Below, piece by piece: positions 2,595 through 56,972 of a stretch of 64,000 nt of DNA (its first letter is position 1; the number at the start of each line of letters is the position of its first letter). Below the pieces are notes generated by a model. That model worked only from the letters and a program-made list of their open reading frames with translations, had not been told where the DNA came from and did no database searches. This stretch comes from Spirochaetia bacterium. GTDB lineage: Bacteria > Spirochaetota > Spirochaetia > SZUA-6 > Bin103. Location: assembly GCA_965198005.1 (NCBI GenBank), contig CBDAOI010000003.1, positions 480,001 through 544,000 of the forward strand, in the 5' to 3' direction. The position numbers and the translations under genes were made by a program.

Positions 2595-3689
2595 TTAGGG
2601 GCCGGTGGTGGCGGGGATCGTCGAGTCGAAGTCGTCGTATCCGGCCGCCAGCTCTTGCGCCCTGTTGATGGCGTTCTCCGGATCGAGCAGGCCGTATCCA
2701 TAGACCGCGTCGACGCCGGGCGCGCCAAGGTCACGAGCCGACTTCAGCAGAATGTACGCCAGTTGCTCCGGGGACAGCGTAGGGCACTTCTGACCGAGAA
2801 TCGCAAGCGCTCCCGTCACGCGCGGCGCCGCAAACGAAGTGCCGGCGAAGCCGCGTCCTCTATTGTCATCCGGAGCCACGATGAAGGCGTTGCGAGCGGC
2901 CCCCGCCCGGGCTGAGTGAGCAACTTCACCGTGCGAGAGCACCCACGTGTCTCCCGTCGGGGCGTAGTCGACGGCGCCTACCACCAGCACGGCGCTCTTG
3001 GCATGCAAGTACCCGCGGTCGCCGACCGGCAAGCCGCTGGCCAAGGACTCGACGAATCCGTTGGCGCGGATCGTGGGCTCGGCGCGGGCGGGATCGCCGC
3101 CCGGCAACGCGGTCGGGAAGTTTCCGGCTCCGTACACGTCCAGGCCCGCATACCTGCCGAACGTTGAGTCGTCTCTGAGGGCCCGCGATTGCGCGACCGG
3201 AAGCTCATCCTCGGCGTCCGGACTCAGCACCCCAAAGGACTTGTTGACGAGGTGGAGCCTGGTGTGATCCACGCCGGCCGGCAGGCTGTCGGACTGCCCG
3301 ATTAAAAAGAACGTCGCGTTGGGCGCGTACCGGCGCGCGATGCTGGCAACTCCCGTACCGTGGCTGGCGCTGCCGTCGGGGTAGAAGACGTCCGCTATGA
3401 CGACCTTGACACCGTGGCCGTTCCAACCCCGGGCATGCAGCCGTCGCAGTGCACGGCGTTCATGGTCGGTGAAGTCCAGCGCTTCATCGCCTCCCGAGTC
3501 GATGTCGTAGTTCCAGTCGCGCGTCGTCGGAGCCGGTTGACCGGCACAGACCTCCGGAGCCGCGGGCGCCGCGGGCGCCGGCGCCGACCCCGACGCCGAC
3601 ATGTCACCCATTTCACAACCGGCGATCGTCAGGATCGCACTGAGAGCCAACGCCACGCTGCCACACCGTGAACACCTGGTCGAACACAT
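2595..3689 (-). CDS. S8 (subtilisin-like) serine peptidase, probable lipoprotein
   Basis: Catalytic motifs VVIAD, SHGTGVAS and GTSFAAP; oxyanion GAGN; lipobox-like LTIAGC. Start placed at ATG 3689 (uncertain). Confidence 0.8.
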   Translation of the reverse strand: MCSTRCSRCGSVALALSAILTIAGCEMGDMSASGSAPAPAAPAAPEVCAGQPAPTTRDWNYDIDSGGDEALDFTDHERRALRRLHARGWNGHGVKVVIADVFYPDGSASHGTGVASIARRYAPNATFFLIGQSDSLPAGVDHTRLHLVNKSFGVLSPDAEDELPVAQSRALRDDSTFGRYAGLDVYGAGNFPTALPGGDPARAEPTIRANGFVESLASGLPVGDRGYLHAKSAVLVVGAVDYAPTGDTWVLSHGEVAHSARAGAARNAFIVAPDDNRGRGFAGTSFAAPRVTGALAILGQKCPTLSPEQLAYILLKSARDLGAPGVDAVYGYGLLDPENAINRAQELAAGYDDFDSTIPATTGP

Positions 3690-3867
3690 AGTCGACGGCA
3701 ACGTACACAAACCGGATCCCGCATGCAAGGACAATACCCCACGAGCGATGATTGCCAACGAAGACCAAGCGGGCCGGACAAGGACGGAGATCTCGACCGC
3801 GAGGTCTGCGCTGGTAGTTCGCATGCTCCGTGGCAGCACGACCAAAGTCCTGAACCCATGGACCTTA

Positions 3868-3990
3868 GGGGCCAGCACGTCGGCGAAGATGCGAAGATCG
3901 CCACCAGAATCAGTGCCGGCACGACCACGCCGCCGACGGTGCCGAGCGGCTTCTCGCGCCACAGCCGGACCAGGAAACCGACGCCGACCG
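3868..3990 (-). pseudogene. N-terminal fragment of a DppC/OppC-type permease
   Basis: FLVRLWREKPLGTVGG...IFADVLAP resembles the start of the intact gene at 25690. An 8-bp duplication (atcttcgc x2) shifts the frame. Confidence 0.75.
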
Positions 3991-4410
3991 CTTTAGCCAA
4001 CGGTCAACCCAGTCCGTCGAGCAAGTCGTGCAACCGGCAAGACCGGCAAGCAAGGTTGATGCACTGACGCCCTGCTGCCATGATGCTCTCATGCGAACCA
4101 CCGTCACGATCGATGATGGCTCGGAAGACGAGCGTGCTCATTTCACCGGTACCGGCGGGCGCTCAGTTCCAGCAAGTAGGGATCAGCCACGTCCCGATGG
4201 ATGCGGGAAGAGCGTGCTGCGGTTTTCTCGGGGCGTCGGCCCACTTCGAGTTCGTGTGCGCCGAAGCTACGTCGGCGACGTCACGCTCACGGCCATTGTC
4301 GACGGGAGCAATCGCACCTTCGAAGCGTCTGTAATCTCCACGTGTCAGTGACCCCGGCCGTGCTGCCGCGCTGCGCTCGAAGCGCTACCCCCGACCGGCG
4401 GATCGGGCTG

Positions 4411-4464
4411 GAGTTCAGCCGCGACACCCGACGTGACCGCGTTCGAGGTGGCGCCCGGCTGACG
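4411..4464 (+). repeat. About 55-bp imperfect direct repeat, copy 2 (3' tip of the PD-(D/E)XK gene)
   Basis: Near-identical to 2501-2556. Confidence 0.9.
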
Positions 4465-4573
4465 ATCGCGGCCGGGAGCGGACTTGGCGACAACCGGCGC
4501 TCGCACCGCCGGAATCCACGCGCGCCCTGGCCGGCGTTCCGCTGCCGCCGGCGCCGTGGAAGCGGATTGAGGT

Positions 4574-5692
4574 ATGGAGACCACCCGACACCAAATCCAG
4601 TTCGCCGACGCGCGCCGTATGGCCGCCGTCCCTGACACCACGATCGCGCTGGTGGTGACCTCGCCTCCCTACCCGATGATCGAGCTGTGGGACGAGCAGT
4701 TCGCCGCGGCGGACCCGCAGATCGCGCAGGCGCTGGCGGACGCGCACGGGAATCGGGCGTTCGAGCTCATGCACGGGCGCCTCGACGCGGTCTGGCGCGA
4801 GTGCCATCGCGTACTCCGGCCCGGCGGGCTGGCGTGCATCAACGTCGGCGACGCCACCCGCAAGATCGGCGGCGAGTTCCGGCTGTTCTCCAACCACAGC
4901 CGCATCCTGCAGGCGCTGACGGAGCTGCGCTTCTCGGTGCTGCCCGACATCCTGTGGCGCAAGCCGACCAACGCCCCCAACAAGTTCCTCGGCTCCGGCA
5001 TGCTGCCGGCCGGCGCCTACGTGACCTACGAGCACGAGTACGTCCTGATCGCCCGCAAGGGCGCCCCGCGGACGTTCGCACCGGCCGACAAGGCCCGGCG
5101 CCGGCGCAGCGCCTTCTTCTGGGAGGAACGCAACGAGTGGTTCTCCGACCTGTGGCTCGGTCTGGTCGGAACCCGGCAGCTCCTCGGCGACGCGGGGTCC
5201 GACGATCCCGACGCCCGCGCGCGCAGCGCCGCGTACCCGTTCGAGCTGGCCTACCGCCTGATCCAGATGCACTCGCTGATCGGCGACACCGTGCTCGACC
5301 CGTTCCTCGGCACCGGCACCACCACCGCCGCCGCCATCGCAAGCGGCCGCTCCAGCATCGGATTCGAGATCGAGCACAGCTTCGAGCAACCGATCCGCAC
5401 CACCATCGAGACCGCCGTCCCGCTCGGCCGCGCCTACGCCCAGCGCCGGCTGGAAGCACATCTGGACTTCGTACGCTCCCGCGAGGAGGCGGGACGCCCC
5501 TGTCGCCACGTCAACCGCCACTACGGGTTCCCGGTAGTGACCGGCCAGGAAGCCGACCTGCAACTCGTCGCCCCCGGCGTGATCGAAGCCGAGTCGGCAG
5601 CAACATTCACCGCCCGACATGAACCCGCACCGCTACCTGTCCACTCGTCTCAGATCGAGCTACCCTTCGCGAACGGCCATGCAGCGCGATGA
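4574..5692 (+). CDS. Site-specific DNA methyltransferase, beta class (probably N4-cytosine)
   Basis: Catalytic VVTSPPY is N-terminal to SAM-binding VLDPFLGTGTT; also RVLRPGG and ILWRKP. Confidence 0.9.
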   Translation: METTRHQIQFADARRMAAVPDTTIALVVTSPPYPMIELWDEQFAAADPQIAQALADAHGNRAFELMHGRLDAVWRECHRVLRPGGLACINVGDATRKIGGEFRLFSNHSRILQALTELRFSVLPDILWRKPTNAPNKFLGSGMLPAGAYVTYEHEYVLIARKGAPRTFAPADKARRRRSAFFWEERNEWFSDLWLGLVGTRQLLGDAGSDDPDARARSAAYPFELAYRLIQMHSLIGDTVLDPFLGTGTTTAAAIASGRSSIGFEIEHSFEQPIRTTIETAVPLGRAYAQRRLEAHLDFVRSREEAGRPCRHVNRHYGFPVVTGQEADLQLVAPGVIEAESAATFTARHEPAPLPVHSSQIELPFANGHAAR

Positions 5693-45536: not shown

Positions 45537-45686
45537 CGCCGTCGGCCACGCCACGGGCGGCACCCGGGTGCCGCCGCCGAACTGGTAAACCGCGTTGCGC
45601 GTTTAGGGTTTAGGATGTCGTGATCGACCTTACCGCACACGGCGGCGGCACGGGCTTGGCTGCCGACCACGCCGGAGGCAGCCCGG

Positions 45687-46442
45687 TCAGGTACGGTGGT
45701 CTTCCGCGGCGCCGGTGGGCACGAAGCCGAGCACGGAGCGGCCGTGCTCCAGGTCGCGGTAGCCCCAGCGGTTGTTCGACGTCACGTAGAACACGTCGTA
45801 CTTGAGGTCCGCCGGGGCGTCGAGGCAACGCTCCACCATCTGCGCGATGTCCGCTTGGCTGCAGTAGACCGAGAACTGGCGCGGCAGCGTGGGCTTGTCC
45901 TCTGCCACCACGTTGCCGATGCGCAGGCAGAGAATCGACAGCTCGGTGGTATCGGTGAAGTGCCGGGCCAGCGCCTCGCCGAACACCTTGCTGCAGCCGT
46001 ACAGGCCGCGCGGCCACACCGCCGACTCGTGCGTGAGCCGGTCCCAGGTGGCGGGCGCCGCCTGGTAGCGGCCTTCGACGAGCGCCCGGTAGGGCATCAC
46101 GTTCTCCCACCCGGCGGTCGCCATCCCGCTGCTGGCGTACACGATGCGCCGTACCCCGGCCCGGCGCGCCGCCTCGAACACGTTGTAGGTGCCGACGATG
46201 TTGTCGTTGAGGATCGTCTCCCAGCTTTCTGACGGGCGGGCGAACGCAGCCAGGTGCACGACCGCGTCGATCCCGTCAAACGCGGGCCGAATCGCCTCCA
46301 GGTCGCCGACGTCGGCCGTAACGCACGGCACGCCCGGCAACGCGCGCCGGTTCAGCGCGCGCAACGCGAACCGCCCCTGCAGGTGATCCCGCAGCACGCC
46401 GCCGATCAGGCCGCTCATGCCGGTAATCAGAACGTTCTTCAT
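45687..46442 (-). CDS. NAD-dependent epimerase/dehydratase (uronate dehydrogenase-like)
   Basis: ITGMSGLIG, VVHLAA, YASS, YGCSK and LRIG motifs. Confidence 0.9.
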   Translation of the reverse strand: MKNVLITGMSGLIGGVLRDHLQGRFALRALNRRALPGVPCVTADVGDLEAIRPAFDGIDAVVHLAAFARPSESWETILNDNIVGTYNVFEAARRAGVRRIVYASSGMATAGWENVMPYRALVEGRYQAAPATWDRLTHESAVWPRGLYGCSKVFGEALARHFTDTTELSILCLRIGNVVAEDKPTLPRQFSVYCSQADIAQMVERCLDAPADLKYDVFYVTSNNRWGYRDLEHGRSVLGFVPTGAAEDHRT

Positions 46443-46500
46443 GTGTGTCGGAGCCGCGCGGCGCCGCACACAACGGCACCGCGCATCTCGGCACCAAGCC

Positions 46501-47204
46501 TCAGAACGCCACGTCGATGCCCAGGTTGACCCGGTGGGTGAGCATCAGCCCCGGGGATACGGTTACGTATTCGTCGCCGACAATTTCCTTGGTCGACTTC
46601 AACTGCGGGTTGACGATCCCGAACAGCCGGTAGCCGAGGTCGAGCCCGATGGCGTCGGTAAGCTGGTAGACCACGCCGGCGCCGCCCTGGAAGGCGAACA
46701 CCCATCCGGAGAAGACCTTCTCGCTAAGGGACAATCAAATCGGAAGGTGTCCGCCCTTAGGTGCCGTCGCGCTGATGAGCCGCCGCCGCCGCCGACCCCG
46801 ATGTAGGGAACGAACGCGGTGCCGGTGTCGACGTCCAGCCAGACGTTGGCGGTGCCGCCGAACAGCGTGAAGCCCCCCTTCGGAGTCCTTGTCCCCGGCG
46901 TCGTCACCGGCCTCAGTGACGGCAAACCCCGCGTTCAGGTAGGAGACCTCGGCGTCGACGCGGAAGTCGCCGAAGTCGTAGCCCACGCCGCCGGCGAAGC
47001 CGAAGCCGAACGAGAACGACCAGTCGGTGTCCTCCTTCCGCCGAGCCCATGCTTCGCCTTGACCTTGCTCGCGTCGCCGACCAGATTGGCGCCGACGTCG
47101 AGCGAACCATAGAGGCCGGTGCCGCCCATTCCCAGCTGCGCGAAGGTGGCCACCGATTGCGCGGCCAGCAAAACCACAGTGCAGAGCACCGCATAGATAC
47201 GCAT
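46501..47204 (-). pseudogene. Outer-membrane beta-barrel protein (opacity/P44-like), multiply frameshifted
   Basis: Signal peptide, GYDFGDFRVDAEVSY, PYIGVGGG, FQGGAG...LDLGYR and terminal F are spread over four ORF pieces. Confidence 0.8.
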
Positions 47205-47280
47205 GTGTCAGATCCCTCCCAGATGGATCGAATAGTATTCTCTACCTTACTACACAAGAAAAAGTTGTGCAACTGCTTAT

Positions 47281-47301
47281 CCGGTAACATCCCGGTAACA
47301 T
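47281..47301. promoter_or_regulatory. Direct repeat with 11-bp period; possible OmpR/PhoB-family binding site
   Basis: ccggtaacat-c-ccggtaacat in an AT-rich divergent intergenic region. Confidence 0.4.
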
Positions 47302-47331
47302 TTCGCCAGCAGCAGTATATTGTATCCGCGC

Positions 47332-48282
47332 ATGTCTGTCCGCGGCGATTTGCCCCGACTGATTCCCGTCGCCGCGGCGGTGGCGGTGATCGCCGCGGGG
47401 CTGGCCGCCTTCCTCGCCGTGCGTGGTCCCGCGCCGGAACGGGTGGCGGCGGACTTCCTGCGCGCCCGCTACGTCAACGACGCGCGTGCGGTGTACGCGG
47501 TGGCCTCGGCCGCCGACCGCCGCTACCGCTCGCTCGAAGAACACCTGCAGAGCCATCCCCCGTTTCCGGCCGACTACCAGGAACTGATCGACGAGCTGGC
47601 GCGATTCATCGAGATCCGCGCCACCGACGTGGCGCTGCAACCGGACCGCGGCCTGGTGACCGTGCGCGGCTCGGTCCCGAACGCCAACCACCCGGAGTTG
47701 GCGGGCCTGCTGCACGGCACGGGCGCGGAGGCGGCGCCCGCCTCCCTGCCTGAGCGCCGGTCCGCGCTCCGCGCGCGGGGCCGGGACGGCGCGCTGCCCG
47801 TGATCGAGTTCACCGAGCAGGTGGAGCTGGTGCGCGAGCCGGACGGCTGGCGGGTGTTCCTCGACTGGGCGGTGGGCCACACCATCACCTTCGCCGCCGA
47901 GGTGCGCGAGCAGCTCCCGTTCGAGTTCAGCGTGCAGCCGGCCAGCGTCACGCTCAAGCCGGGCGAGGTCGCAGCGGCGCTGTTCCGCGCCCGCAACACG
48001 TCAGACCGCACCGTCAAGGCCAAGGCCGGGCACCTGTTCGACCCGCCCGTGGCGTTCCTGCACACCGAGCTGGTGCAGTGCTTCTGCTTCTTCGAAGACA
48101 CGTTCGCCGCGGGCGAGGAAAAGGAACTGCCGGTGGCGGTCCGGCTCGGCTGGGACATTCCACCCGACCTCACCGAGATCACCATGACCTACGAGTACTA
48201 CCCGCTGGAGCGGTTCCAGGACCGCCGGCCCGCCGTGACCGGTGCCCCGGCCGACCAGGCTGGCCGCGGCGCCGCCGACTGA
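47332..48282 (+). CDS. CtaG/Cox11-domain copper chaperone with an extra N-terminal domain
   Basis: C-terminal VTLKPGE...ARN...QCFCF....A.EE.ELPV; N-terminal TM segment. Confidence 0.75.
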   Translation: MSVRGDLPRLIPVAAAVAVIAAGLAAFLAVRGPAPERVAADFLRARYVNDARAVYAVASAADRRYRSLEEHLQSHPPFPADYQELIDELARFIEIRATDVALQPDRGLVTVRGSVPNANHPELAGLLHGTGAEAAPASLPERRSALRARGRDGALPVIEFTEQVELVREPDGWRVFLDWAVGHTITFAAEVREQLPFEFSVQPASVTLKPGEVAAALFRARNTSDRTVKAKAGHLFDPPVAFLHTELVQCFCFFEDTFAAGEEKELPVAVRLGWDIPPDLTEITMTYEYYPLERFQDRRPAVTGAPADQAGRGAAD

Positions 48283-48418
48283 AAGCCGGTCAGCGGCTGC
48301 CGGCAAGTGTCTTGAGTCGGCAAGGACACTCCGTGGAAGACCATGAAAATCGATGTTCAGGCATCGCCGGTTGGCCAGCATTTTCGGGTTAGTGATCGGG
48401 GCCTGGACGACCCGTGGG

Positions 48419-49000
48419 TCAGGCGATGTCGTACGGAACGGCGATGATGATGGCGATCAGCATGCCATCCCGCTCGAGCACCAGATCGACCTCCGTGCCG
48501 GAGTGCACGCGCCAGTGATGGGCGCGCGGCGGATGCCGCATCGTCTGAGCCTGCTTGAGCAGATCGAGGACGACGTGAGTTTCGAACAGAGCGCCCTGAA
48601 TCGGATTCGACAGCAGGGCCGTGGGGCTGGAGATTCGCTGGGTCCACGCCGCCAGGCCGGTGTCGGCGCACAGGCCGACGAGACGCGCAAACAGATCCGC
48701 GTCTTCGACCGCGGCAACCCGGCGCACGTCGCGTTCGACGTAGGTCCGCAGGTAAGAGAAGAACAGATCGGGGAGAATCTCGTCGTCGTGGTCCAGGTGA
48801 CCGGGGAACCCGCCCCGCCAGAGGCGGCTTGCCAAGGTGGGCTCGATAGCGCGTTGCGGCAGCCGGTCGCACCCGCGCAACTTGGCGAGCGGGTTGGCGG
48901 CGAACAAGTCTTCAACCCACGTCCCCTGTGTCGTCCCCCGGTGGCAGCGCTCGGCCAACGCGAGAAACGGAAGATCGAGCACAGCCACTCGTCCGGCCAT
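48419..49000 (-). pseudogene. AAA_14/DUF4143 ATPase remnant
   Basis: AGRVAVLDL, RGGFP, YLRTYVERDV, DTGL, GALFET.V and EVDLVLE motifs; internally deleted and 5'-truncated. Confidence 0.82.
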
Positions 49001-49381
49001 GGGCGTAGGTCTCAAATTGACCGGTCGAGGCAGCACGGCCGTGTGCCAGCTCGACCATGCGCGGGCGCGGGCGCATCCCGCCGGCAGGTGGCGCGGCCGT
49101 CATGAACCGCCGGCCGGCGGCGGTTCCCAAAGCACGTCGAGCGCCGCCGCCAGGTCGAGCGACTCCCCGTACCACTCCGGCGTCGCCGTATGCGGGCCGA
49201 TCGTGATCCCCGCCTGCCGCAGCCGCGCCTCGGTCGGCTCCAGCGGCGCCCCCTCCCAGCGAGGCGCCACCGGCACCGCCGGCAGCGGCGCACCATCCGG
49301 CCGCCGGAACACAAGCTGCCCATCCGCGCCAGAGACCACCTGCAACCCCTCCTCGTGCACCGCCCGGTGGTGGTAGCGACA
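49000..49381 (-). repeat. 382-bp inverted repeat, left copy: 3' end of an HNH endonuclease gene plus 3' flank
   Basis: Reverse complement of 52772-53153 with about 4 mismatches; encodes CRYHHRAVHEEG...FRRPDG. Confidence 0.95.
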
Positions 49382-49470
49382 CACGAGAACTAATGCGGTG
49401 CCCGGGGTAATGCGGAGTCACATGACCTAATTCCTTTAGGAATGGCTCTTGAGGCCCAGATCGCTGTGCA

Positions 49471-50463
49471 TTATCCCGGGGCCAGAAGCGAGGCGATCAG
49501 CGCGTCGGGCGCCTTGAATCGCCCGCGCCGCAGTTCCGGCGGCAGTACAGCTTCGACGGCCTCCAGCTTTTCGGTGGGGTCCACGCGCAGATAGACTTCG
49601 GTGGTGCGCACATCGGCGTGTCCCAGCCATAGGGCGACCTTGCGGATATCGCCGGTAGCCTGAAGCATGGTGAGAGCGCAGCTATGGCGTAACTGGTGGG
49701 GCGAGATCGGGCGTCCCGCCAGCGAGGGACATGCCGTCGCGGCTGCCCGCACGTGCTTGTCCAGGACGTACTCGAATCCGGCGCGGCTCATGGGCCTGTC
49801 GGTGGCGTTCAGGAACAGCTCCGGCACTGGATTCTCGCCGCGGACGGCGAGCCAGGCACGGAGGTCGGCGGCGGTTTGTTTCCACAGCGGGAGACAGCGC
49901 TCACGGCGGCCCTTGCCAAGCACTCGGAGACTCGCAGTTCCGCGCAGCGACAGATCTGCCACCTGCGCCGTCACCAGTTCGGACACGCGCAGAGCAGCAG
50001 CGAAGCAGAGATGGAGCATGGCGCGGTCGCGGATGCCGAACCGGGTGGTGGTATCGGGAGCGTCCAGGAGCGCGCTGATCTCGTCCATGGTCAGGTGGCG
50101 GACGAGCGGCTGATCATGGCGTTTGGTCGGGATGGCAAGGATCTGTCTGGCTTGGTCGAGCGCAGCCGGGTGGCGGAACTCGACATAGCGCATGAAGGCT
50201 TTCACTGCTGCCAGTCGGATGTTGCGGCTGGCCGGGCTGCCACCACGATCCACCTCGAAGTGGGTGAGGAAAGCCAGGATGAGCGGGGCGTCGAGGTGTT
50301 TGAGGTACAGCTGCGATGGTCTGATGCCGAGGCGATCGGCAGCGAAGATGAACAACAGCCGGAAGGCATAGGCGTAGCTCTCACAGGTATGGGGGCTATA
50401 GCCGCGCTGCACGGGGAGGTAGTCGCGCAGGAAGTCGGTGATCAGGGGAGCGATAGGAGTCAT
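49471..50463 (-). CDS. Tyrosine recombinase, RitC-like
   Basis: LRVSE, GKGRRER, PHQLRH, LGH and TEVY motifs. Confidence 0.93.
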   Translation of the reverse strand: MTPIAPLITDFLRDYLPVQRGYSPHTCESYAYAFRLLFIFAADRLGIRPSQLYLKHLDAPLILAFLTHFEVDRGGSPASRNIRLAAVKAFMRYVEFRHPAALDQARQILAIPTKRHDQPLVRHLTMDEISALLDAPDTTTRFGIRDRAMLHLCFAAALRVSELVTAQVADLSLRGTASLRVLGKGRRERCLPLWKQTAADLRAWLAVRGENPVPELFLNATDRPMSRAGFEYVLDKHVRAAATACPSLAGRPISPHQLRHSCALTMLQATGDIRKVALWLGHADVRTTEVYLRVDPTEKLEAVEAVLPPELRRGRFKAPDALIASLLAPG

Positions 50464-51371
50464 GCCAACCTCCCGGCAACCAGGTTCTCGCCGGCCGTGG
50501 CGATGTCGGCCATCAATTCCGGCGTCGCCTCCAGGTACCAGTAGGTGTAGGCGGGGTTGGCGTGGCCGAGGTAGGTGGAGAGCGCGACCAGGTGGCGCGC
50601 CACTGATTCACGTCGGACCGCACAGCGTTGCAGGGATCTGGTGGCAAAGGTGTGGCGCAGATCCGCCAGGCGCGGGCGGCGCTGGCGGCCAGGAGCGATG
50701 CCTGTGAGCCGGATCACTTTTTGGAAGGTGGTACTGGCCATCGGGGTGGGGATGCGCCGGTGGTTCGCCGACACGAACAGATGGTCGTCGGCGATGGCGA
50801 CCCGCTGGCGCTCCTGCAAGTACGCAGTCAGAGCGTCGACCGAAGTCGCATGCAGCGGCACCAGGCGGCTCTTGGCGAACTTGGTTTGGCGGATGCGCAG
50901 GACAGCGTTGGGGAGCAGGTCGTCGAAGCGCAGGTCGAGTGCCTCCGAGACCCGCAGTCCGGTGGCCGCGATGAGCCCGATCAGGGTCGCATAGACGGGC
51001 CGGCGCAGCGCGTAGGAGCATGGCAGACGGTGCGCCGCCGCCAGCAGTTGGCCGATCTCAGCAGGCGTGTAGATGTAGGGTGGCTGGCGCACCACACGGA
51101 CATGGAAGTAGCGAGCTGGGGGTATCTCGTGGGTGGTGTCCTCGGCGTACAAGAAGCGGGCCAACAGGACAACGTCATGCAGTCGAACATGGCGCATGTG
51201 CGGCGAGGACGCCTGCGCTGCCCACGCCACGGCGGTAGTGGCGCGGACATGGGTGTCGCCCCTGTCGATGGCGAAACGTGCGTACGCCTGGAGATTGCGG
51301 GCTGTGTCCCGTAGCTTGTAGCCGAGGGTTCGCCGCAGTGCGAGATAGCGCTCTACGTGGTCGTTCAGCAT
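50460..51371 (-). CDS. Tyrosine recombinase, RitB-like
   Basis: TGLRVSEA, TKFAKSR, RLADLRHTFA, YLGH and TYWYL motifs. Confidence 0.92.
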   Translation of the reverse strand: MLNDHVERYLALRRTLGYKLRDTARNLQAYARFAIDRGDTHVRATTAVAWAAQASSPHMRHVRLHDVVLLARFLYAEDTTHEIPPARYFHVRVVRQPPYIYTPAEIGQLLAAAHRLPCSYALRRPVYATLIGLIAATGLRVSEALDLRFDDLLPNAVLRIRQTKFAKSRLVPLHATSVDALTAYLQERQRVAIADDHLFVSANHRRIPTPMASTTFQKVIRLTGIAPGRQRRPRLADLRHTFATRSLQRCAVRRESVARHLVALSTYLGHANPAYTYWYLEATPELMADIATAGENLVAGRLA

Positions 51372-52605
51372 GATGGTGCCTCCGGCCACGGCTGGGCGAC
51401 CTCGCCCAGCAGGTCGAAGTCGATCTTGGCGTAGTGCGCGGTCGTGTTCGGGGAGCGGTGCCTCAGAACACTGCCGATACCGGCCAGGGACACCCCGCTG
51501 CGCAGCATGGCGGTGGCAGCTGAGTGGCGCAGCAGATGTGCGCCGTGGTGGGGCGCGTTGAACCTGCGCGACGTAGAGCTTTGCACACGACACCGGACAC
51601 GGCTTGTCGAGTCATCGGGCGGCGCGGTGCCACAGCCGAGATGAACACCCGTGCCACCGGCAACGGCGGTCGTCCGCGGCGCAGGTAGATCACGATGGCG
51701 TCGCCGACCTGCTGGGGAAGCGGCAGCCAGTATTGGCGCCGACCCTTGCCGCAGACGGCGATGCGCCCGTTCTGCCAGTCGATGGCATCGAACGTCAGCT
51801 CGGCGACCTCGCTGGCGCGCAGACCCAGCCGAGCGAGCAGGAGTACTACCGCCCGATCTCTGGCCCCAACTGCATCCTCATCGCTGCAGGCGTCGATCAG
51901 CTTCTCCAGATCCTCAGGCTCAAGGAACCGAGGCGTGGCGGCGAGTTGGTAGCACGCGAAGCGTGGCACCGCGTGCCGCAGGCCGTCGGAGCACTGCCCG
52001 GTGGCAGCGAGGAACCGCAAGAAGGCGCGCACTGCCGTAGCGATCAACTGAGCCGTTGCGACCTTATGACCGTCACACCGCGTTATCACGAAGCCGCGAA
52101 CAGCCGCGGCGCTGTAGTTCGCCGGAACAACTCCCAGAGCCTCGACGAAATCGGCTACGTAGCATTCGTAGCGGTCCATGGTGCTGTGTGTCACGCCCTG
52201 GTGTTGCAGCGTCCACTTCCGAAACTGCTTCAGCAACGGCCAGCGTTCGCTCGGCGGCAGTGGCTGCTGGGCAACCGCCAGGACGCCTCGCTCCCGCAGG
52301 AACCGGATGAACACCGCAGCGGCCGCCAGTGAGTTTCGGTTGGGACCCCGCTGATAGCGCACACGACCGTGCTCGGATAGCGAGGTCCGGCACGCCTCGT
52401 ATCCCGCCACGAACTCCTTATCAGTGAACGACTCCTCGGTGAGCCAGTCCGTCCATGCGGCCAAACAGCGCAAGATGAAACTGCGCGAGTTAGCCGGATA
52501 GCCGCGTTCCTGCAGCCAGTCTGCAAAGTCGTCGATGTAGGCGATCGCGGGTCCGGAACGGAGTCGCCGGCAAGTGATCGCCAACTTGAGGTGGTCTTCA
52601 AGCAT
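51365..52605 (-). pseudogene. Tyrosine recombinase, RitA-like, with an apparent 1-bp deletion near 51562
   Basis: LGLRASEV and GKG are in one frame; HLLRHS..LRH..TAHYAK are in another. Confidence 0.88.
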
Positions 52606-52771
52606 GGATGCCTCCTTGCTTGAAGGAGCGCGATAATGCGGAGTCTTGGCTACTGCAACTACCGGCTAGAACCGCCTGAACCCCATCAGATCAGCCATGC
52701 CCGCCATCTACTCCGCATTATCCCCGGCTCCGCATAGAGAACTAATGCGGTGCACCGCATTACTCAGTCTT

Positions 52772-53153
52772 TGTCGCTACCACCACCGGGCGGTGCACGA
52801 GGAGGGGTTTCAGGTGGTCTCTGGCGCGGATGGGCAGCTTGTGTTCCGGCGGCCGGATGGTACGCCGCTGCCGGCGGTGCCGGTGGCGCCTCGCTGGGAG
52901 GGGGCGCCGCTGGCGCCGACCGAGGCGCGGCTGCGGCAGGCGGGGATCACGATCGGCCCGCATACGGCGACGCCGGAGTGGTACGGGGAGTCGCTCGACC
53001 TGGCGGCGGCGCTCGACGTGCTTTGGGAACCGCCGCCGGCCGGCGGTTCATGACGGCCGCGCCACCTGCCGGCGGGACGCGCCCGCGCCCGCGCATGGTC
53101 GAGCTGGCACACGGCCGTGCTGCCTCGACCGGTCAATTTGAGACCTACGCCCA
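52772..53153 (+). repeat. 382-bp inverted repeat, right copy (HNH gene 3' end)
   Basis: Reverse complement of 49000-49381. Confidence 0.95.
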
Positions 53154-54017
53154 AGCGAAGCTGAAGCGACGGCAGGAGGGAAGCCGCCGCAGGAGCCGGA
53201 AGCAGGACCGAAAGACAAGGACCAAGTGAACTTCACGGATGAAGAATCACGGATCATGCCGGGCGCGAACGGGGAGTTCATACAGGATTTCAACGCGCAA
53301 GCGGTGGTGGAGCAGGACAGTCACATGGTGGTGGGCAACCACGTCAGCCAAGCGGCCAACGACAAGCAGGAAGTGGCGCCGGCGCTGAACGAGTTGGGAA
53401 AGGTGGCAGACGAGCTGGGCAAGCCGGAGGCGCTGGTGGCGGATGCCGGGTACCACAGCAAAGAGAACGTGGAGCGGTGCGTGGAACAGGACATCGAGCC
53501 GTATATCGCGGGGAGCCGGGAACGCCACAACCGGCCGCTGGAAGATCGTCTCAAGGCACCCCCGGAGTGTCCTGCTGATGCGGATGCGGTGACGGCAATG
53601 CAGCATCGTTTGCAGACGGCTGAGGGGAAGGCGATCTATAGCAAGCGGAAGTCCACGGTGGAGACGGTGTTCGGGGTGATCAAGGAGGTGCTGGGATTCC
53701 GCCGCTTTCATCTGCGCGGGTTACGCGGCGCCGAGGGAGAATGGAGTCTGGTGTGCACGGCGTGGAATCTGAAGCGGATGTATGCTCTGGCAGGAGGATA
53801 AGTGGGATCAGTGGGTCCCGATGGTCGAGTTGTGGCGCCGGAACGGGCGCCGGAGCCACCTTGGAGGGTGTTGCTGGCATCACGACCTCCCGCAGGGCCT
53901 GCTTTGGGCACTCGACTGAGCGCAACCAAGCGCTGGCGAGCTAGGCGGCCGCCTACGGCGTTCCACTGGGCTCGCTCACTTCGTAACCCCGCGACCATGA
54001 CTCCGACAGGCTCCTAG
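53154..54017 (+). mobile_element. 5'-truncated IS1182-family element (transposase remnant ending 53801)
   Basis: DQVNFTDEESRIM, FNAQ, ADAGY, RKSTVETVFG.IK..LGFRRF.LRG and NLKR motifs; probable right end ccgacaggctcctag. Confidence 0.85.
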
Positions 54018-54071
54018 CGCCCCAAGACCGCCGCCGGTCGGCGCCGCGCTTGGCACATCCGGTCGGTTCGC

Positions 54072-54599
54072 CTACGAGTCTGTCGCACTCCGACACACTC
54101 CGAGGCGGGCGCGGATCTCCGCGGTCACCTGCTGCGGGGTGCGGCCGTCGGTGGCGATGGCGGTCCCCACCTGCGCGTACCAGCGGCGCCGTGCCGCCAG
54201 CAGTTCCTCCACTCCCGCCGCGCTGCCGGCCAGCAGCGGCCGCTCGCTGCTCCCGCCGATCCGCCGCACCACTTCCGCCGCGCTGGTCTCCAGATAGAAC
54301 GTGCGGCACTGATGCCGCAGGAAGCTGCGGTTGGCGGCGCGGGTCGGGGCGCCGCCGCCGGTGGCGATAACCAGCCGCCGGCTGCCGGCCAACCCCAGTA
54401 GCAGGCGCGATTCCAGGCGCCGGAACGCCGCTTCGCCGTCACGGAGAAAGATGTCCGCGATCGGGAGGCCGGCCTGCTCGACGGTCAGCTCATCGACGTC
54501 CACGAACCGGTAGCCGAGCGCGGCGCCCAGCAGCATCCCCACGGTGCTCTTGCCCGACCCCATGAACCCCACCAGCGCGACTCGATCCGGCAGCTCCAT
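54072..54599 (-). CDS. aroK: Shikimate kinase
   Basis: GFMGSGKSTVG, GEAAFRRLE, ATGGG and RPLL motifs. Confidence 0.95.
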   Translation of the reverse strand: MELPDRVALVGFMGSGKSTVGMLLGAALGYRFVDVDELTVEQAGLPIADIFLRDGEAAFRRLESRLLLGLAGSRRLVIATGGGAPTRAANRSFLRHQCRTFYLETSAAEVVRRIGGSSERPLLAGSAAGVEELLAARRRWYAQVGTAIATDGRTPQQVTAEIRARLGVCRSATDS

Positions 54600-54762
54600 C
54601 TGCTCGTGCGGAGCCTGCCGCATTCGACGCGGCTGGACAAGACCGCACCCGCTGCACCTGCACCTGCACCTGCGCGCGCTGTACCGCAGCCCCTGCCGGG
54701 TGCGGCGCTACCGGGTCCGGCGCGCGGTAGCTGCGCGGGCGCCCGCGGGGTAGCATGGCCGG

Positions 54763-55656
54763 GTGTCGCACGCGCCGCTGGTATCGGTGGTGATCCCGAC
54801 CTACAACCGCGCGCACTTGGTGCGCGCGGCGGTGGAGTCGGTGCTGGCCCAGACCTACCGGCCGCTCGAGCTGATCGTGGTCGACGACGGCTCGACCGAC
54901 GCGACCGGCCGCGTGCTGGCCGCCTGCGGCAGCGTCCGGGTGGTGCGCCAGACCCATACCGGGATGCCCGGGCAGGCGCGCAACGCGGGCGCCCGGCTGG
55001 CGCGCGGCGAGTACCTCGCCTTTCTCGATTCCGACGATCTATGGCTGCCGCAGAAGCTGGAGCTGCAGGTGGCGGCTGCCACGGCCGGGGGCGAGGTGCT
55101 GCACCACACCCGCGAGCGGTGGGAACGGTCGGGGCGGGTCGTGTCGCAGCGCGCGCAGCGCCACCGGCGGTGCGGCGACCTGTTTCTCGACTCGCTGCGC
55201 AAGTGCGTGATCGGCCCGTCGACCGTGCTGCTGCGGCGCGCGGTGTTCGCGGCGGCCGGCGGGTTTCGCGAACACCTGCAGATCGCCGAGGACTATGAGC
55301 TGTGGCTGTGGCTGACGGCGCGCTACCCGGTCGGGTACCTGGAGCGCGCGCTGGTGATCAAACGGGCCGGGCACGGCGACCAGCTCTCGGAGCGGTACGG
55401 GCAGATCGAGATCTTCCGGCTGCAGGCGTTGCGCGCGCTGCTGGAGGGCGGCCGGCTGCCCGCGCACCGGCAAGCGGCCGCGGGCGCGGAGCTGGCGCGC
55501 AAGGCGCTGATCTACGCCGCCGGCTGCCGCAAGCGCGGTCGTCCGCAGGAGGCGCGCCGCTACGAGGAGCTGGCGGCGCGCTGGTCGCACCACTCCCGGA
55601 GCGTGCCGCTCAGCTCCGGCAGCGCGGCCGCGAACGCCGGCGCCGCCTGCAGGTAG
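54763..55656 (+). CDS. Glycosyltransferase family 2
   Basis: VSVVIPTYNR, VDDGSTD, ARNAG, FLDSDD and EDYELW motifs. Confidence 0.92.
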   Translation: MSHAPLVSVVIPTYNRAHLVRAAVESVLAQTYRPLELIVVDDGSTDATGRVLAACGSVRVVRQTHTGMPGQARNAGARLARGEYLAFLDSDDLWLPQKLELQVAAATAGGEVLHHTRERWERSGRVVSQRAQRHRRCGDLFLDSLRKCVIGPSTVLLRRAVFAAAGGFREHLQIAEDYELWLWLTARYPVGYLERALVIKRAGHGDQLSERYGQIEIFRLQALRALLEGGRLPAHRQAAAGAELARKALIYAAGCRKRGRPQEARRYEELAARWSHHSRSVPLSSGSAAANAGAACR

Positions 55657-55742
55657 CCGTCCGGGGCGCCGGTGTCGGAGCAGCCTGTGCGGCCAGCGCC
55701 CTCCCGTTGACCGCATCGCCCCGGCAGGCGACCCTGAGCCCA

Positions 55743-56972
55743 ATGAAGATCTGGCTCAAGACCCTGCTGGCCGCCGGCGCCGGTATCGGGCTCGGAATCG
55801 TCCTCGGTCAGCGCGACACCATCATCACCGGACTGCTCCCGACCGCGGCGGAACTCGCGCTCCGGATCGGCCGGTACGCGGTGTTCCCCAGCGTCTTCTT
55901 CGGTCTGGTGATCGGCACGCACGAGTTGCGCGCGGGCGGCACCGGACTGCGGGTCTACGGCCGCCTGCTGCTCTATCTGGTCTGCAGCAGCGCGCTGCTC
56001 ACCGTGCTCGGCCTGGTGTCGGTGCTGGCCCTGGGCCCGAGCCGCATCCCCATCGGCATCGTCGAGCAGCCGTCGATGGACGTTCCGGGCGTGCTCGACG
56101 CAGTTGCCGCCACCATCCCGACCAACCTGTTCCAGGCGCTGGTGGCTGACGGCTCACTGCTGCTGCCGCTGGTGGTGCTGGCCGTCATCCTGGGTCTGCA
56201 CCTCGACCTCGACGGCGAAGTCACCCGGCCGGTGAGTGACCTTGCCGACGCGCTGTCGCGCATCTTCTTCAATCTCAATGCATTCCTGGTCGAAGTGTTC
56301 TGGATCGCGGCCGTGGTGATCGCCGCCGCCACCGTAGCCGGGCTCGGGGCGGTGGAGCTGGCGCTCTACCGGGAGCTGATCATCATCCTCGTGATCGACG
56401 TGATCGTGCTGTACATGGGCGTGTTCCCGGGGCTGCTGTACCTGCTCGGGGAACGCACCAACCCGTTCCGCTGGATCTACGCCGCGCTCGGGCCGGCGCT
56501 CACCGGCGCCGTCACCGGCGATCAATACGTGGGGCTCGGCTCGCTGGTGGTGCATGGGCACGGCACCTTCGGGCTGCCGCGCAAGCTTTCGTCCGCGGTG
56601 TACCCCTGGTGCGCGCTATTCGGCCGCAGCGGTACCGCCCTGGTGACCGCGGTGAGCTACATCATGATTCTTCGTTCCTACTCCAGCCTGGAGGTAAGCG
56701 CGGCTCAGGTGCTGTGGGTGGCGCTGTTCACCTTCCTGACCTCGTTCGCGCTGGCCGGCGTGCCGGGACTGGGGGTCACCGTCAGCCTGTCGATGCTGTG
56801 GGCGTTCGCCGGTCAGGGCGTACAGGAGGGATATCTGATCCTGCTGCCGATCGCGCCGCTGCTGATCAGCATCGGCGCCCTGCTCGACATTACGACCGCG
56901 GCGCTGATCGGACACGTGGTGGCCCGCGGCGAGCGCGGCGTGCGCCCGATTTCCGTGCGCGACTGGGTGTAG
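55743..56972 (+). CDS. Dicarboxylate/amino acid:cation symporter family protein
   Basis: Multiple TM segments; IPTNLFQAL, GRSGTAL and AGVPG patterns. Confidence 0.78.
   Translation: MKIWLKTLLAAGAGIGLGIVLGQRDTIITGLLPTAAELALRIGRYAVFPSVFFGLVIGTHELRAGGTGLRVYGRLLLYLVCSSALLTVLGLVSVLALGPSRIPIGIVEQPSMDVPGVLDAVAATIPTNLFQALVADGSLLLPLVVLAVILGLHLDLDGEVTRPVSDLADALSRIFFNLNAFLVEVFWIAAVVIAAATVAGLGAVELALYRELIIILVIDVIVLYMGVFPGLLYLLGERTNPFRWIYAALGPALTGAVTGDQYVGLGSLVVHGHGTFGLPRKLSSAVYPWCALFGRSGTALVTAVSYIMILRSYSSLEVSAAQVLWVALFTFLTSFALAGVPGLGVTVSLSMLWAFAGQGVQEGYLILLPIAPLLISIGALLDITTAALIGHVVARGERGVRPISVRDWV

Follow-up and report, generated by a model that had tools for sequence, protein, structure and literature searches.

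In the window, the 64,000-nt stretch of DNA from a Spirochaetia bacterium analysed here, we identified an RIT element of a lineage that appears to insert into the nuclease motif of HNH genes, and the window copy is probably a recombinant of two oppositely oriented insertions.

Between two inverted arms, three minus-strand ORFs in the order ritA-ritB-ritC (51463-52605, 50460-51593 and 49471-50463) match the Pfam profile Phage_integrase, with E-values of 8e-30 for ritC and of 6.5e-21 and 3.4e-18 for the other two. ritC (49471-50463, minus strand) encodes a tyrosine recombinase of 330 aa with a SAM-like N-terminal domain and the Phage_integrase match at 8e-30, and ritB (50460-51371, minus strand), which also matches Phage_integrase, encodes 303 aa when read from MLNDHVERYL. 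The matches cover positions 4-169 (RitB) and 2-170 (RitC) of the 172 in the profile, whereas that of RitA, in the assembly frame, stops at 130. ritA (51365-52605, minus strand) has an assembly frameshift near 51561: the frame 51463-52605 is without the catalytic C-terminus, and it is the frame of ORF 51365-51586 that encodes this part. Public-run contigs carry one additional T after 51561, giving a single open RitA frame of 413 aa that regains ...HLLRHSAAT...HYAKIDF...; RitA of the relatives is uninterrupted and about 412 aa long. The ritB and ritC genes overlap by 4 bp (50460-50463), and ritA, read in its C-terminal frame, overlaps ritB by 7 bp (51365-51371). RitC matched 585 plasmid records, and its identity to trio genes from plasmids of Bradyrhizobium, Rhizobium and Agrobacterium was 68-72%, with 99% of its length aligned; a rhizobial plasmid trio with identical layout is annotated integrase / y4rB / y4rC. 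RIT elements, including the y4rA/B/C-type trios of rhizobial plasmids, were reportedly treated by Ricker and co-workers in 2013. The gene trio, the overlaps, the terminal repeats with the palindrome described below and the similarity of RitC all fit, and on these sequence features we identify the window element as an RIT element.

With a body of 3346 bp and the palindrome included, the RIT element spans 49391-52762. Its left end is IRL, the terminal inverted repeat on the ritC side (TAATGCGGTGCCCGGGGTAATGCGGAGT, 28 bp, 49391-49418, plus strand), where the matches of the relatives' copies start; IRL carries two direct copies of the motif TAATGCGG, and a third, inverted copy lies near 49465-49485. 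The repeat on the ritA side is IRR (ACTCCGCATTATCCCCGGCTCCGCATA, 27 bp, 52710-52736, plus strand), and the two are imperfect inverted repeats of 27/28 bp. Between IRR and a perfect palindrome of 20 bp (TAATGCGGTGCACCGCATTA, 52743-52762), in which the terminal motif is repeated in inverted orientation, stands the 6-bp inner spacer GAGAAC (52737-52742). Outside the element, the 6-bp left spacer GAGAAC (49385-49390) corresponds, in reverse complement, to the HNH codons GTT CTC and recurs as a direct repeat at 52737-52742; a 17-bp direct repeat, GAGAACTAATGCGGTGC, is present at 49385-49401 and 52738-52754. The 6-bp right spacer CTCAGT (52763-52768, plus strand) corresponds to the codons Leu-Ser of the right-hand HNH gene, HNH-B, which come next after Asn-Leu in an intact gene. 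The junctions are unequal, the left one having the 28-bp terminal repeat and the right one the other terminal repeat, a 6-bp spacer and the 20-bp palindrome. The first-pass annotation had seen the same RIT end, ccgcatta, at both; this sequence is indeed present twice, but not as one and the same part of the element, since on the left it ends the 28-bp terminal repeat and on the right it is the outer half of the palindrome, 6 bp beyond IRR.

The palindrome occurs in three exact copies in the 4.9-Mb genome, each directly adjoining an HNH 3' fragment, and the GAGAAC spacer with the palindrome is also found at contig 4:1899450-1899475. Within a genome the inner spacer is fixed: it was GCCTTA in 3/3 copies in relative G007, CAACTC in 3/3 in G001, and CGATTG (3/3) or GAGCCT (3/3) in G020, depending on which terminal repeat adjoins the palindrome. 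Given that the inner spacer is constant per genome, that the outer spacers vary among related RIT copies, and that across genomes each half of the palindrome changes along with the terminal motifs (TAATGCGG versus TTATGTGA), the palindrome belongs to the RIT element, as an accessory site.

The arms were returned by a repeat search as a single inverted pair (49000-49401 and 52752-53153) of 402 nt, 97% complementary and 3350 nt apart. Pairwise alignment outward from TGTCGC, which holds the Cys codon, gave 4 mismatches over 382 nt, confirming the 382-bp inverted HNH 3' ends with about four mismatches that the first-pass annotation had described around the RIT. The 9 nt preceding TGT are unlike (left, in minus-strand reading, GTTCTCGTG; right, CTCAGTCTT), and CACCGCATTA stands before them in both arms. 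The arm ORF reads ...CRYHHRAVHEEG..., and the arm ORFs alone matched no Pfam family. An intact copy of the arm gene at contig 4:75384-77366 (661 aa between stop codons) scored 59.5 bits for DUF222 and 22.1 bits for HNH, against cut-offs of 24.4 and 21.4 bits, in agreement with the DUF222/13E12-like target suspected earlier. This gene is the sole long ORF of an IS-like element of 2.2 kb, and a Pfam profile search of this ORF found no known transposase domain. The element has terminal inverted repeats, with the ends GGGTGTAGGTCTCGTATTGA... and ...TCAATTTGAGACCTACGCCC, and is bordered by target duplications of 8-9 bp: TAAACATT (C4:75269/77471), GTATCAATA (C4:1536898/1539316) and TTTCCTTT (C4:2300442/2302601).

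By alignment, arm A (49001-49384, minus strand) is the last ~385 bp of this element, with the 3' terminal repeat at 49001-49022 and the HNH C-terminal coding part, which begins one codon before Cys, at 49100-49384. Arm homology sets in at 49000-49001, and the 3' end of HNH element A there cuts a DUF4143 ATPase gene, of which the C-terminal half is left (48419-49000, minus strand); ORF 48419-49036 matched Pfam DUF4143 with an E-value of 1.7e-16 at profile positions 82-155 of 160. Arm B (52769-53153, plus strand) holds the final ~385 bp of another copy of the element, its coding part ending at the stop codon 53051-53053 and its 3' terminal repeat lying at 53131-53152. Beyond it, the 3' part of the DDE transposase gene of an insertion sequence (53154-53801, plus strand; Pfam DDE_Tnp_1, E-value of 7e-21) is interrupted by HNH element B between TACG and AAGCGAAG, a break point seen by comparison with four other copies of the same insertion sequence. 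The outer limit of each arm coincides exactly with the terminal repeat of the HNH element. Since the outer flanks are unlike and arm A is closer to the copy at contig 4:1899066-1899470 (98.8% identity) than to the right arm (97.3%), the comparison shows that the arms are the ends of two separate HNH-element copies, once inside the DUF4143 ATPase gene and the DDE insertion sequence, and the earlier reading as two distinct HNH alleles is borne out.

RIT-derived sequence occupies one same codon position in 5/11 site-keeping HNH copies of the window's genome. The five junctions are the left and right ones of the window, C4:1899456, C4:1168153, where the palindrome adjoins an HNH 3' half, and C4:818287, where the IRL of a 1040-bp RIT fragment (99.7% identical) adjoins an HNH 5' half across a spacer of 3 bp rather than 6 bp. 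Four uninterrupted alleles (C2:622, C4:77, C4:1538 and C3:421) read N-L-V-L-(V/C)-C across the site, with the DNA AAC CTG GTT CTC GTG TGT or AAT CTC GTT TTG TGC TGT; they serve as proxies for the empty site, reading through Asn-Leu.

Twenty-one related RIT copies, 85-89% identical in nucleotide sequence, were listed in five genomes, and 20 were analysed. An HNH gene was present at at least one junction in 18/20 (five relatives), at the same codon position and always just after Asn-Leu. The HNH 5'-side junctions reading ...GGxxxxNL/xL numbered 17, and the palindrome-adjacent flanks read xLxCxxHH in 16/17, the remaining one, L041, reading RLLCRESPKP. The targets belong to two HNH families, the DUF222 type (L035 and L048) and a second type. 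Ordinary 5'/3' insertions made up 13/20. The body lay one way in 8 copies and the other way in 8, and the palindrome was always on the HNH 3' side, with the body in either orientation. Specificity for HNH genes is not absolute: L032 (G003) has a non-HNH setting, between 1281-bp perfect inverted copies of a unit, and three more junctions (L031 right, L039 right and L041 left) are with unrelated DNA. With five broken and four uninterrupted alleles here and 18/20 related copies at HNH genes, the site-specific insertion into the HNH motif that had first been proposed has held, and targeting of a fixed codon position by this RIT lineage is well supported.

The same junctions bear on two other readings of the arms. 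That they belong to the RIT itself as long terminal inverted repeats, with the HNH fragment as a passenger that moves along, is very improbable: some distant RITs do hold whole DUF736 genes in inverted arms of 600-800 bp, but here the arms end exactly at the terminal repeat of an independently existing 2.2-kb HNH element with its 8-9-bp target duplications, in the C4:818 copy (99.7% identical) the corresponding end adjoins an HNH 5' half, and the collected junctions, in which related copies are flanked by many HNH alleles, 5' and 3' halves alike, contradict it. HNH nucleases are frequently homing enzymes, and the HNH element could for that reason be imagined to home into RIT ends. The probability of this is slighter still, because the frame that is split is that of the HNH gene, at one codon position, while the RIT ends are intact; complete HNH elements free of RIT sequence are present in the genome, and the intact alleles contradict such an order of events.

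Among the 13 complete insertions, the outer 6-bp spacers were identical on both sides in 6/13 and unequal in 7/13, one of which matches at 5 of 6 positions. A simple crossover at an identical overlap is insufficient to explain all copies. We propose that the RIT lineage enters HNH-motif-encoding DNA through site-specific recombination by its tyrosine recombinases, directly after the Asn-Leu codons, and that the next two codons (6 bp) would act as crossover or coupling spacer; the 6-bp crossover and the chemistry of excision and integration are what we infer from the junctions. With the Cys codon one codon beyond the spacer, such an insertion splits the nuclease motif. The left junction of the window (HNH-A 3' half, spacer, IRL) would derive from an insertion in the HNH element within the DUF4143 ATPase gene. 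The right one (IRR, spacer, palindrome, spacer, HNH-B 3' half) would go back to an insertion of opposite orientation, in the HNH element of the DDE insertion sequence. The two RIT copies may then have recombined, by homologous or RIT-catalysed exchange, with deletion of the intervening DNA as the simplest outcome. In the assembly we found neither an HNH 5' half with a matching flank (ATGGCCGG or AAGCGAAG) nor a reciprocal 5'/5' RIT, which fits a deletion; as the genome is 90% complete, the absent 5' halves could also be unassembled rather than deleted. Of the earlier suggestion that two insertions were later fused, the separate origin of the arms stands, and insertions occur in HNH genes both ways; recombination, probably with deletion, between oppositely oriented insertions is the most probable model of the 3'/3' bracket.

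An alternative, to which we give a low probability, is that the bracket is intrinsic to RIT chemistry and no later accident, the two-fold symmetric sites (two terminal repeats and the palindrome) leading the recombinases to connect corresponding halves of two targets. 3'/3' and 5'/5' brackets would then arise routinely, by inversion of an occupied site against a further copy of the target or by way of a hairpin or fold-back intermediate. Inverted brackets do recur: L036, in the one-contig genome G018, is another bracket of the 3'/3' kind, with two different HNH genes at its sides, and the 1281-bp arms of L032 are 100% identical. Distant RITs (RitC 69-75% identical) had inverted flanks of at least 250 bp with 72-100% identity in 22 of the 46 loci whose flanks were long enough for comparison, and at L129 the palindrome and the same DUF736 3' half stand on both sides. 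A perfect palindrome within inverted arms is also the expected look of a replicated hairpin end, and hairpin intermediates have been proposed for RITs from exonuclease-resistant, non-circular molecules (accessible part of PMC5737581). However, ordinary 5'/3' insertions account for 13/20 related copies, and the reciprocal 5'/5' product expected of an inversion is absent from the assembly. Moreover, the window arms differ at 4 positions and in the 9-bp junction codons, and their outer flanks are unrelated; they are therefore not a fresh inverted duplication.

Somewhat less probable again is an assembly chimera, in which the 3.3-kb RIT copies of two ordinary insertions were collapsed and one insertion's left flank was joined to the other's right flank. 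The structure lies at a repeat in a four-contig, 90% complete assembly, and the public-run contigs that align to it are 137-444 bp long; as there is no spanning read or contig, its long-range arrangement is known from the assembly only. Where relatives have the genes on either side of the bracket on one contig (G001, G003 and G007), 0.42-0.62 Mb separates them, but synteny with these three, at a nucleotide identity of 72-77%, is already poor over 3 kb, so that this break says little. Against a chimera, a 4.9-Mb assembly in four contigs was presumably built from reads long enough to cross ~4.2 kb, the partner junctions (an HNH 5' half at either terminal repeat, with matching flanks) are absent from the assembly and the contig ends, and the one-contig relative has a 3'/3' bracket as well.

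Recombination between two oppositely oriented insertions remains our preferred reading, and the element can be set beside known systems. Fim-type switches and Rci shufflons are invertible DNA segments run by tyrosine recombinases. In G018 the two spacers that border the RIT body are exact reverse complements of each other (AGATTG / CAATCT), which, with a body lying either way between fixed flanks, is the layout of an invertible segment; unlike in those systems, it is the mobile element itself that inverts, and no regulated gene is evident. A second likeness, in the type of repeat occupied, is to phiRv1, an element of about 10 kb. phiRv1 of Mycobacterium tuberculosis integrates into REP13E12, a multicopy repeat of the 13E12/DUF222 type (PMC9317374, accessible text), so that both are mobile elements in such repeats; phiRv1 is prophage-like with a serine integrase, whereas the RIT has three tyrosine recombinases.

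Among RITs, the ritA-ritB-ritC element of Cupriavidus metallidurans CH34 was described by Van Houdt et al. (2012; PMC3414803), with reading frames that overlap by 4-8 bp as far as the accessible text goes, and RITs are described with a pair of core-binding domains in RitA and an additional helix at the C-terminus of RitC (PMC8138268). Described RITs share with the window element an identically ordered set of three overlapping tyrosine recombinase genes, a size of ~3.3-3.5 kb and, for CH34 by description in the available excerpts, an inverted repeat of 28-29 bp with an 'overlapping palindromic sequence' and multiple copies per genome; the window RitC is ~70% identical to the y4rC-type proteins of rhizobial plasmid trios. 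They differ in that those excerpts give no defined target, whereas here it is a fixed codon position in HNH genes, and in that here the palindrome lies 6 bp from one end, always on one target side, with the body in both orientations. In the sections available, Idola et al. (2023; PMC10214605) list target specificity and movement of RITs as untested and report no laboratory mobility for any RIT. The TnpA/B/C, IntA/Tfp/IntB/Srap and GinA-D systems covered there are site-specific and carry a 6-bp flank from the donor to the new site; a carry-over of this kind could account for the unequal outer spacers in 7/13 RIT copies. Compared by description, their gene sets are unlike ritABC, and terminal inverted repeats with a palindrome are not described for them in those sections.

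At this site, the RIT would be a mobile element inserted into copies of another selfish element, splitting its HNH nuclease gene.

Three tyrosine recombinase genes lie on the minus strand between two inverted HNH gene fragments: ritC (49471-50463, 330 aa), ritB (50460-51371, 303 aa), which overlaps ritC by 4 bp, and ritA (51365-52605), whose assembled sequence contains a frameshift. RitC shares 68-72% identity with y4rC-type genes in the recombinase trios of rhizobial plasmids, and 585 plasmid records match it. One of these plasmid trios, annotated integrase, y4rB and y4rC, equals the window trio in sizes and overlaps. Given this gene layout and the identity of RitC to plasmid trios, the element is a recombinase-in-trio (RIT) element, as the first-pass annotation had it, in the sense of the passages of Van Houdt et al. 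2012 (PMC3414803) that describe such trios. RitA of the relatives occupies a single frame of about 412 aa. Contigs of four public sequencing runs carry an extra T after position 51561, at all depth in two runs and at about half in the other two, and scripted translation with this T gave back a 413-aa ritA frame with the HxxR and Tyr motifs. The frameshift may be a one-base assembly error or may mark a dead copy in the strain.

The flanking arms were recovered by a repeat search as 49000-49401 (left, HNH-A) and 52752-53153 (right, HNH-B), 402 nt each and 97% complementary. Counted outward from the Cys codon (TGTCGC), 382 nt with four mismatches are common to both arms, in agreement with the earlier count, and the 9 nt upstream of that codon are indeed unlike, GTTCTCGTG versus CTCAGTCTT. 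Thirteen matches to the arm sequence occur in the genome of the window (GCA_965198005.1; 4.9 Mb, 4 contigs). Full copies define a 2.2-kb HNH unit (reference copy, contig 4:75266-77471, positions 3267-5472 of fetched locus L018) with terminal inverted repeats of about 20 bp, GGGTGTAGGTCTCGTATTGA... and ...TCAATTTGAGACCTACGCCC, and the genome holds about nine copies or more. Target duplications of 8-9 bp flank the copies at contig 4:75266-77471 (TAAACATT), 1536898-1539316 (GTATCAATA) and 2300442-2302601 (TTTCCTTT). The guess that the gene is DUF222/13E12-like was right: the single long ORF of the unit (661 aa, stop to stop) passes the Pfam cut-offs for DUF222 and HNH. No known transposase domain was found in this sole long ORF, and the unit looks like a transposable element with a DUF222/HNH nuclease as its only protein.

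The 3' terminal repeat of the HNH unit forms the exact outer end of both arms. Outside the left arm a DUF4143 ATPase gene is represented by its C-terminal half, and outside the right arm a DDE insertion sequence by its 3' part, with the break at TACG/AAGCGAAG. The left arm matches the copy at contig 4:1899066 at 98.8% identity and the right arm at 97.3%. Since the outer flanks differ and the left arm is nearer to the contig 4 copy, the arms are two separate HNH-element copies, as had been suspected from their junction codons, and not a local inverted duplication.

The insertion point was read against uninterrupted alleles of the same genome, AAC CTG GTT CTC GTG TGT CGC at contig 2:622 and AAT CTC GTT TTG TGC TGT CGC in three other copies. 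At the left junction (minus strand, ...GGGCACCGCATTA/GTTCTC GTG TGT CGC), the 28-bp terminal repeat on the ritC side (IRL, 49391-49418) is fused to the HNH gene directly after Asn-Leu. The right end runs from the terminal repeat on the ritA side (IRR, 52710-52736) through GAGAAC, a perfect 20-bp palindrome, TAATGCGGTGCACCGCATTA (52743-52762), and CTCAGT to CTT TGT CGC. Thus, the first-pass claim that both HNH copies are broken at the same codon position holds, but the right copy touches the palindrome, at a point 26 bp beyond the terminal repeat, and not the repeat itself.

The palindrome has three exact copies in this genome (the window, contig 4:1168153 and contig 4:1899456), each adjoining an HNH 3' fragment. 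The two contig 4 sites were considered as empty targets and rejected: both retain an inner spacer (the 6 bp between IRR and palindrome; GAGAAC or GAGGAC), which is element-borne, and beyond it each is interrupted by one end of an IS1595-like element, so that both are remnants of insertions. Copies of the IS1595-like element adjoin the inner spacer at contig 4:1899476-1899482 and 1168173-1168185. At contig 2:910100-911230, another copy sits exactly in the spacer between terminal repeat and palindrome in a different RIT family, with a duplication of 8 bp (ATCAAGGA), making three hits in total on the same few bp of RIT ends.

At contig 4:817248-818287 lies a RIT fragment of 1040 bp that matches the window copy at 99.7% identity, and its IRL adjoins an HNH 5' half (...CTT TCT AAC TTG GTT/TAATGCGG), which is the opposite orientation. 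The neighbouring segment (contig 4:819000-821400) belongs to a very abundant repeat family, with hundreds of matches at 72-93% identity on all four contigs. Eleven HNH copies in the genome keep the site region: four are intact, five carry RIT-derived sequence at the site, one is cut by another element 4 nt upstream of the junction at contig 4:818287, and one, otherwise complete, lacks 4 nt exactly where the RIT inserts (contig 1:255497-255515, AAC CTT ATC TG/TGT CGC). This deletion may be coincidental or a scar left by excision.

Of 40 related genomes searched at the DNA level, five (G001, G003, G007, G018 and G020) held a total of 21 related RIT copies at 85-89% identity. Twenty of the 21 were fetched with 2-kb flanks and read in the HNH sense. 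Their common architecture is an HNH 5' half, 6 bp, the RIT between its terminal repeats, 6 bp, the palindrome, 6 bp and an HNH 3' half. Among these 20 copies, 17 5'-side junctions read ...GGxxxxNL/xL, the RIT body lies one way in eight and the other way in eight, and none has its palindrome towards the HNH 5' half; in one copy, L046, the palindrome is absent. The motif xLxCxxHH is found in 16 of 17 palindrome-adjacent flanks, the remaining one (L041) having RLLC only. At least one such HNH junction is present in 18 of the 20 copies, L041 being ambiguous, which bears out the proposed site-specific targeting. Two HNH families serve as targets in the relatives, one of DUF222 type (L035, L048) and a second that reads ...IEIDHILPYALGGxxDPxNL. 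A related RIT at L032 (G003, contig 5:5303400-5310664) lacks the palindrome and lies between 1281-bp, 100% identical inverted units that encode a tyrosine recombinase and an IS91-like transposase.

The spacer between palindrome and terminal repeat is constant in each genome, and the outer spacers, which adjoin the HNH gene, change with the target. The palindrome halves co-vary with the terminal motif, which is TAATGCGG in G001, G007, G020 and the window's genome and TTATGTGA / TTATGCGA in G018. Because the inner spacer is constant per genome and the halves change with the terminal motif, we take the palindrome as part of the moving unit. In G018 the spacers flanking the body are exact reverse complements (AGATTG and CAATCT), the layout of an invertible segment, which is consistent with the two body orientations.

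The size of the crossover region of tyrosine recombinases is 6 bp. Pairs of the putative binding motif, and likewise pairs of motif and target arm, lie exactly 6 bp apart. By eye, no in-register resemblance was found between the HNH 5' arm and the RIT binding motif; the 3' arm has TG(C/T) in common with it, and one HNH family reaches about 7 of 10 positions at most. The 6-bp arrangement suggests, as the most likely course, that the two outer junctions recombine with each other, which would free a circle and restore the HNH gene. In the circle, a full site would be formed by a terminal repeat and half of the palindrome with 6 bp between them, and integration would be the reverse reaction. The outer spacers are identical on both sides in 6 of 13 complete insertions and unequal in 7, which fits either 6 bp carried from a previous site or exchange among copies; the sections of a comparison of tyrosine-recombinase transposons that treat Tn554 and SEs describe 6 bp taken along from the previous site (PMC10214605).

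On this architecture, the right part of the bracket (IRL to IRR, GAGAAC, palindrome, CTCAGT and the HNH-B 3' half) is a normal insertion of one orientation missing its HNH-B 5' partner, and the left junction (HNH-A 3' half, GAGAAC, IRL) a normal junction of the opposite orientation without the palindrome, comparable to L046. The presumed starting point is two RIT copies of the same direction inside HNH elements inverted relative to each other. A single recombination between the two RITs would remove the 5' halves of HNH-A and of the ATPase gene, the intervening DNA, the 5' part of the insertion sequence and the 5' half of HNH-B. The same product could arise by a RIT-catalysed exchange between the 5'-side junction of one locus and the palindrome-side junction of another. 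The partner pieces of the deletion model are absent from the assembly of the window's genome, where none of 10 HNH 5' ends has an 8-bp flank matching either arm (ATGGCCGG, AAGCGAAG). Another 3'/3' bracket occurs at L036 in G018, a one-contig genome; it involves two different HNH genes and has a palindrome on each side. The first-pass observation is confirmed, and its reading of RIT insertion into HNH genes is supported with corrections such as the palindrome at the right junction.

An assembly chimera would also place two HNH 3' halves around one RIT, and we consider it improbable, even though nothing spans the bracket region. The contigs of the four public runs, from samples with several related strains, are 137-444 bp at the bracket and none bridges an arm; being so short, they neither decide the long-range structure nor give a view of inversion isomers. 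Genes on either side of the bracket (45600-48350 on the left, 54050-56970 on the right) were also sought in 12 relatives, and lie 0.42-0.62 Mb apart in the three that hold both on one contig. Synteny is broken already inside the 3-kb left query, and deletion, inversion and chimera are therefore not told apart by it.

A distant set of loci (L065-L129), whose RitC is 69-75% identical, comes from Alphaproteobacteria, Acidobacteriota and other groups; the palindrome there is TTATGCGGTGCACCGCATAA or closely similar. In the 24 distant loci in which the palindrome was found, its outward flank reads AEFER... of a serine recombinase in 8, (A/V)E(I/F)GAAW... of DUF736 in 12 and other sequence in 3, and is too short in 1. 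By Pfam, the AEFER start corresponds to position 121 of 145 of the Resolvase profile and the EIGAAW start to position 49-50 of 99 of DUF736; one of the serine recombinase targets is a large serine recombinase. Inverted flanks of at least 250 bp and 72-100% identity occur in 22 of 46 distant loci with a comparable flank, and whole DUF736 genes lie within the inverted arms in one case. The window's genome also has at least six recombinase trios of other RIT families, 27-52% identical in amino acids (contig 2:907100-909937; contig 3:708275-711163, 787436-790273 and 906548-909388; contig 4:271297-273981 and 1783786-1786701). Terminal repeats are about 90 bp in four of these, three of which (contig 4:271297, contig 3:787436 and contig 3:906548) have their own palindrome beside one end.

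The targets observed are thus HNH after Asn-Leu in the window lineage, and the serine recombinase at AEFER and DUF736 at EIGAAW in the distant lineages. It is conceivable, although we would put it somewhat below an even chance, that RITs are 'motif hunters', each lineage using one fixed, protein-constrained motif in a gene of another mobile element, with a three-part site set and the palindrome as a pivot. The set would comprise a pair of terminal repeats plus a palindrome that consists of two end-motif copies, with 6 bp between each. Around such a pivot the body would flip and occupied targets would recombine with one another, yielding the inverted 3'/3' brackets as well as deletions or inversions of large segments.

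RITs are common in bacterial genomes and plasmids, and for the window element, a RIT, both the target and the architecture of the site are defined. In the relevant passages, Van Houdt et al. 2012 give a 28-29-bp inverted repeat with an 'overlapping palindromic sequence' and mobility still to be demonstrated (PMC3414803), Nielsen et al. 2017 describe palindromic ends of 47-51 bp and propose hairpin intermediates (PMC5737581), and the comparison of Idola et al. 2023 lists RIT target specificity, empty site and movement as untested (PMC10214605). Among the papers searched, none links RITs to HNH genes, and an earlier mention elsewhere may exist. The nearest precedent is phiRv1, in the part of its description that covers a 13E12/DUF222 repeat as the site of a mobile element (PMC9317374); unlike the window RIT, phiRv1 uses a serine integrase.

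The junction set provides candidates at the base-pair level for the target site, the 6-bp crossover or coupling region and the accessory palindrome, and together with natural copies in both orientations these make a defined integration or inversion assay designable. If the reading of fixed protein-constrained motifs were true, three site pairs for three recombinases would account for the trio requirement. In the window's genome, one selfish element disables the nuclease of another, with 5 of the 11 site-keeping HNH copies affected, and RIT copies may flag spots of past large rearrangement.
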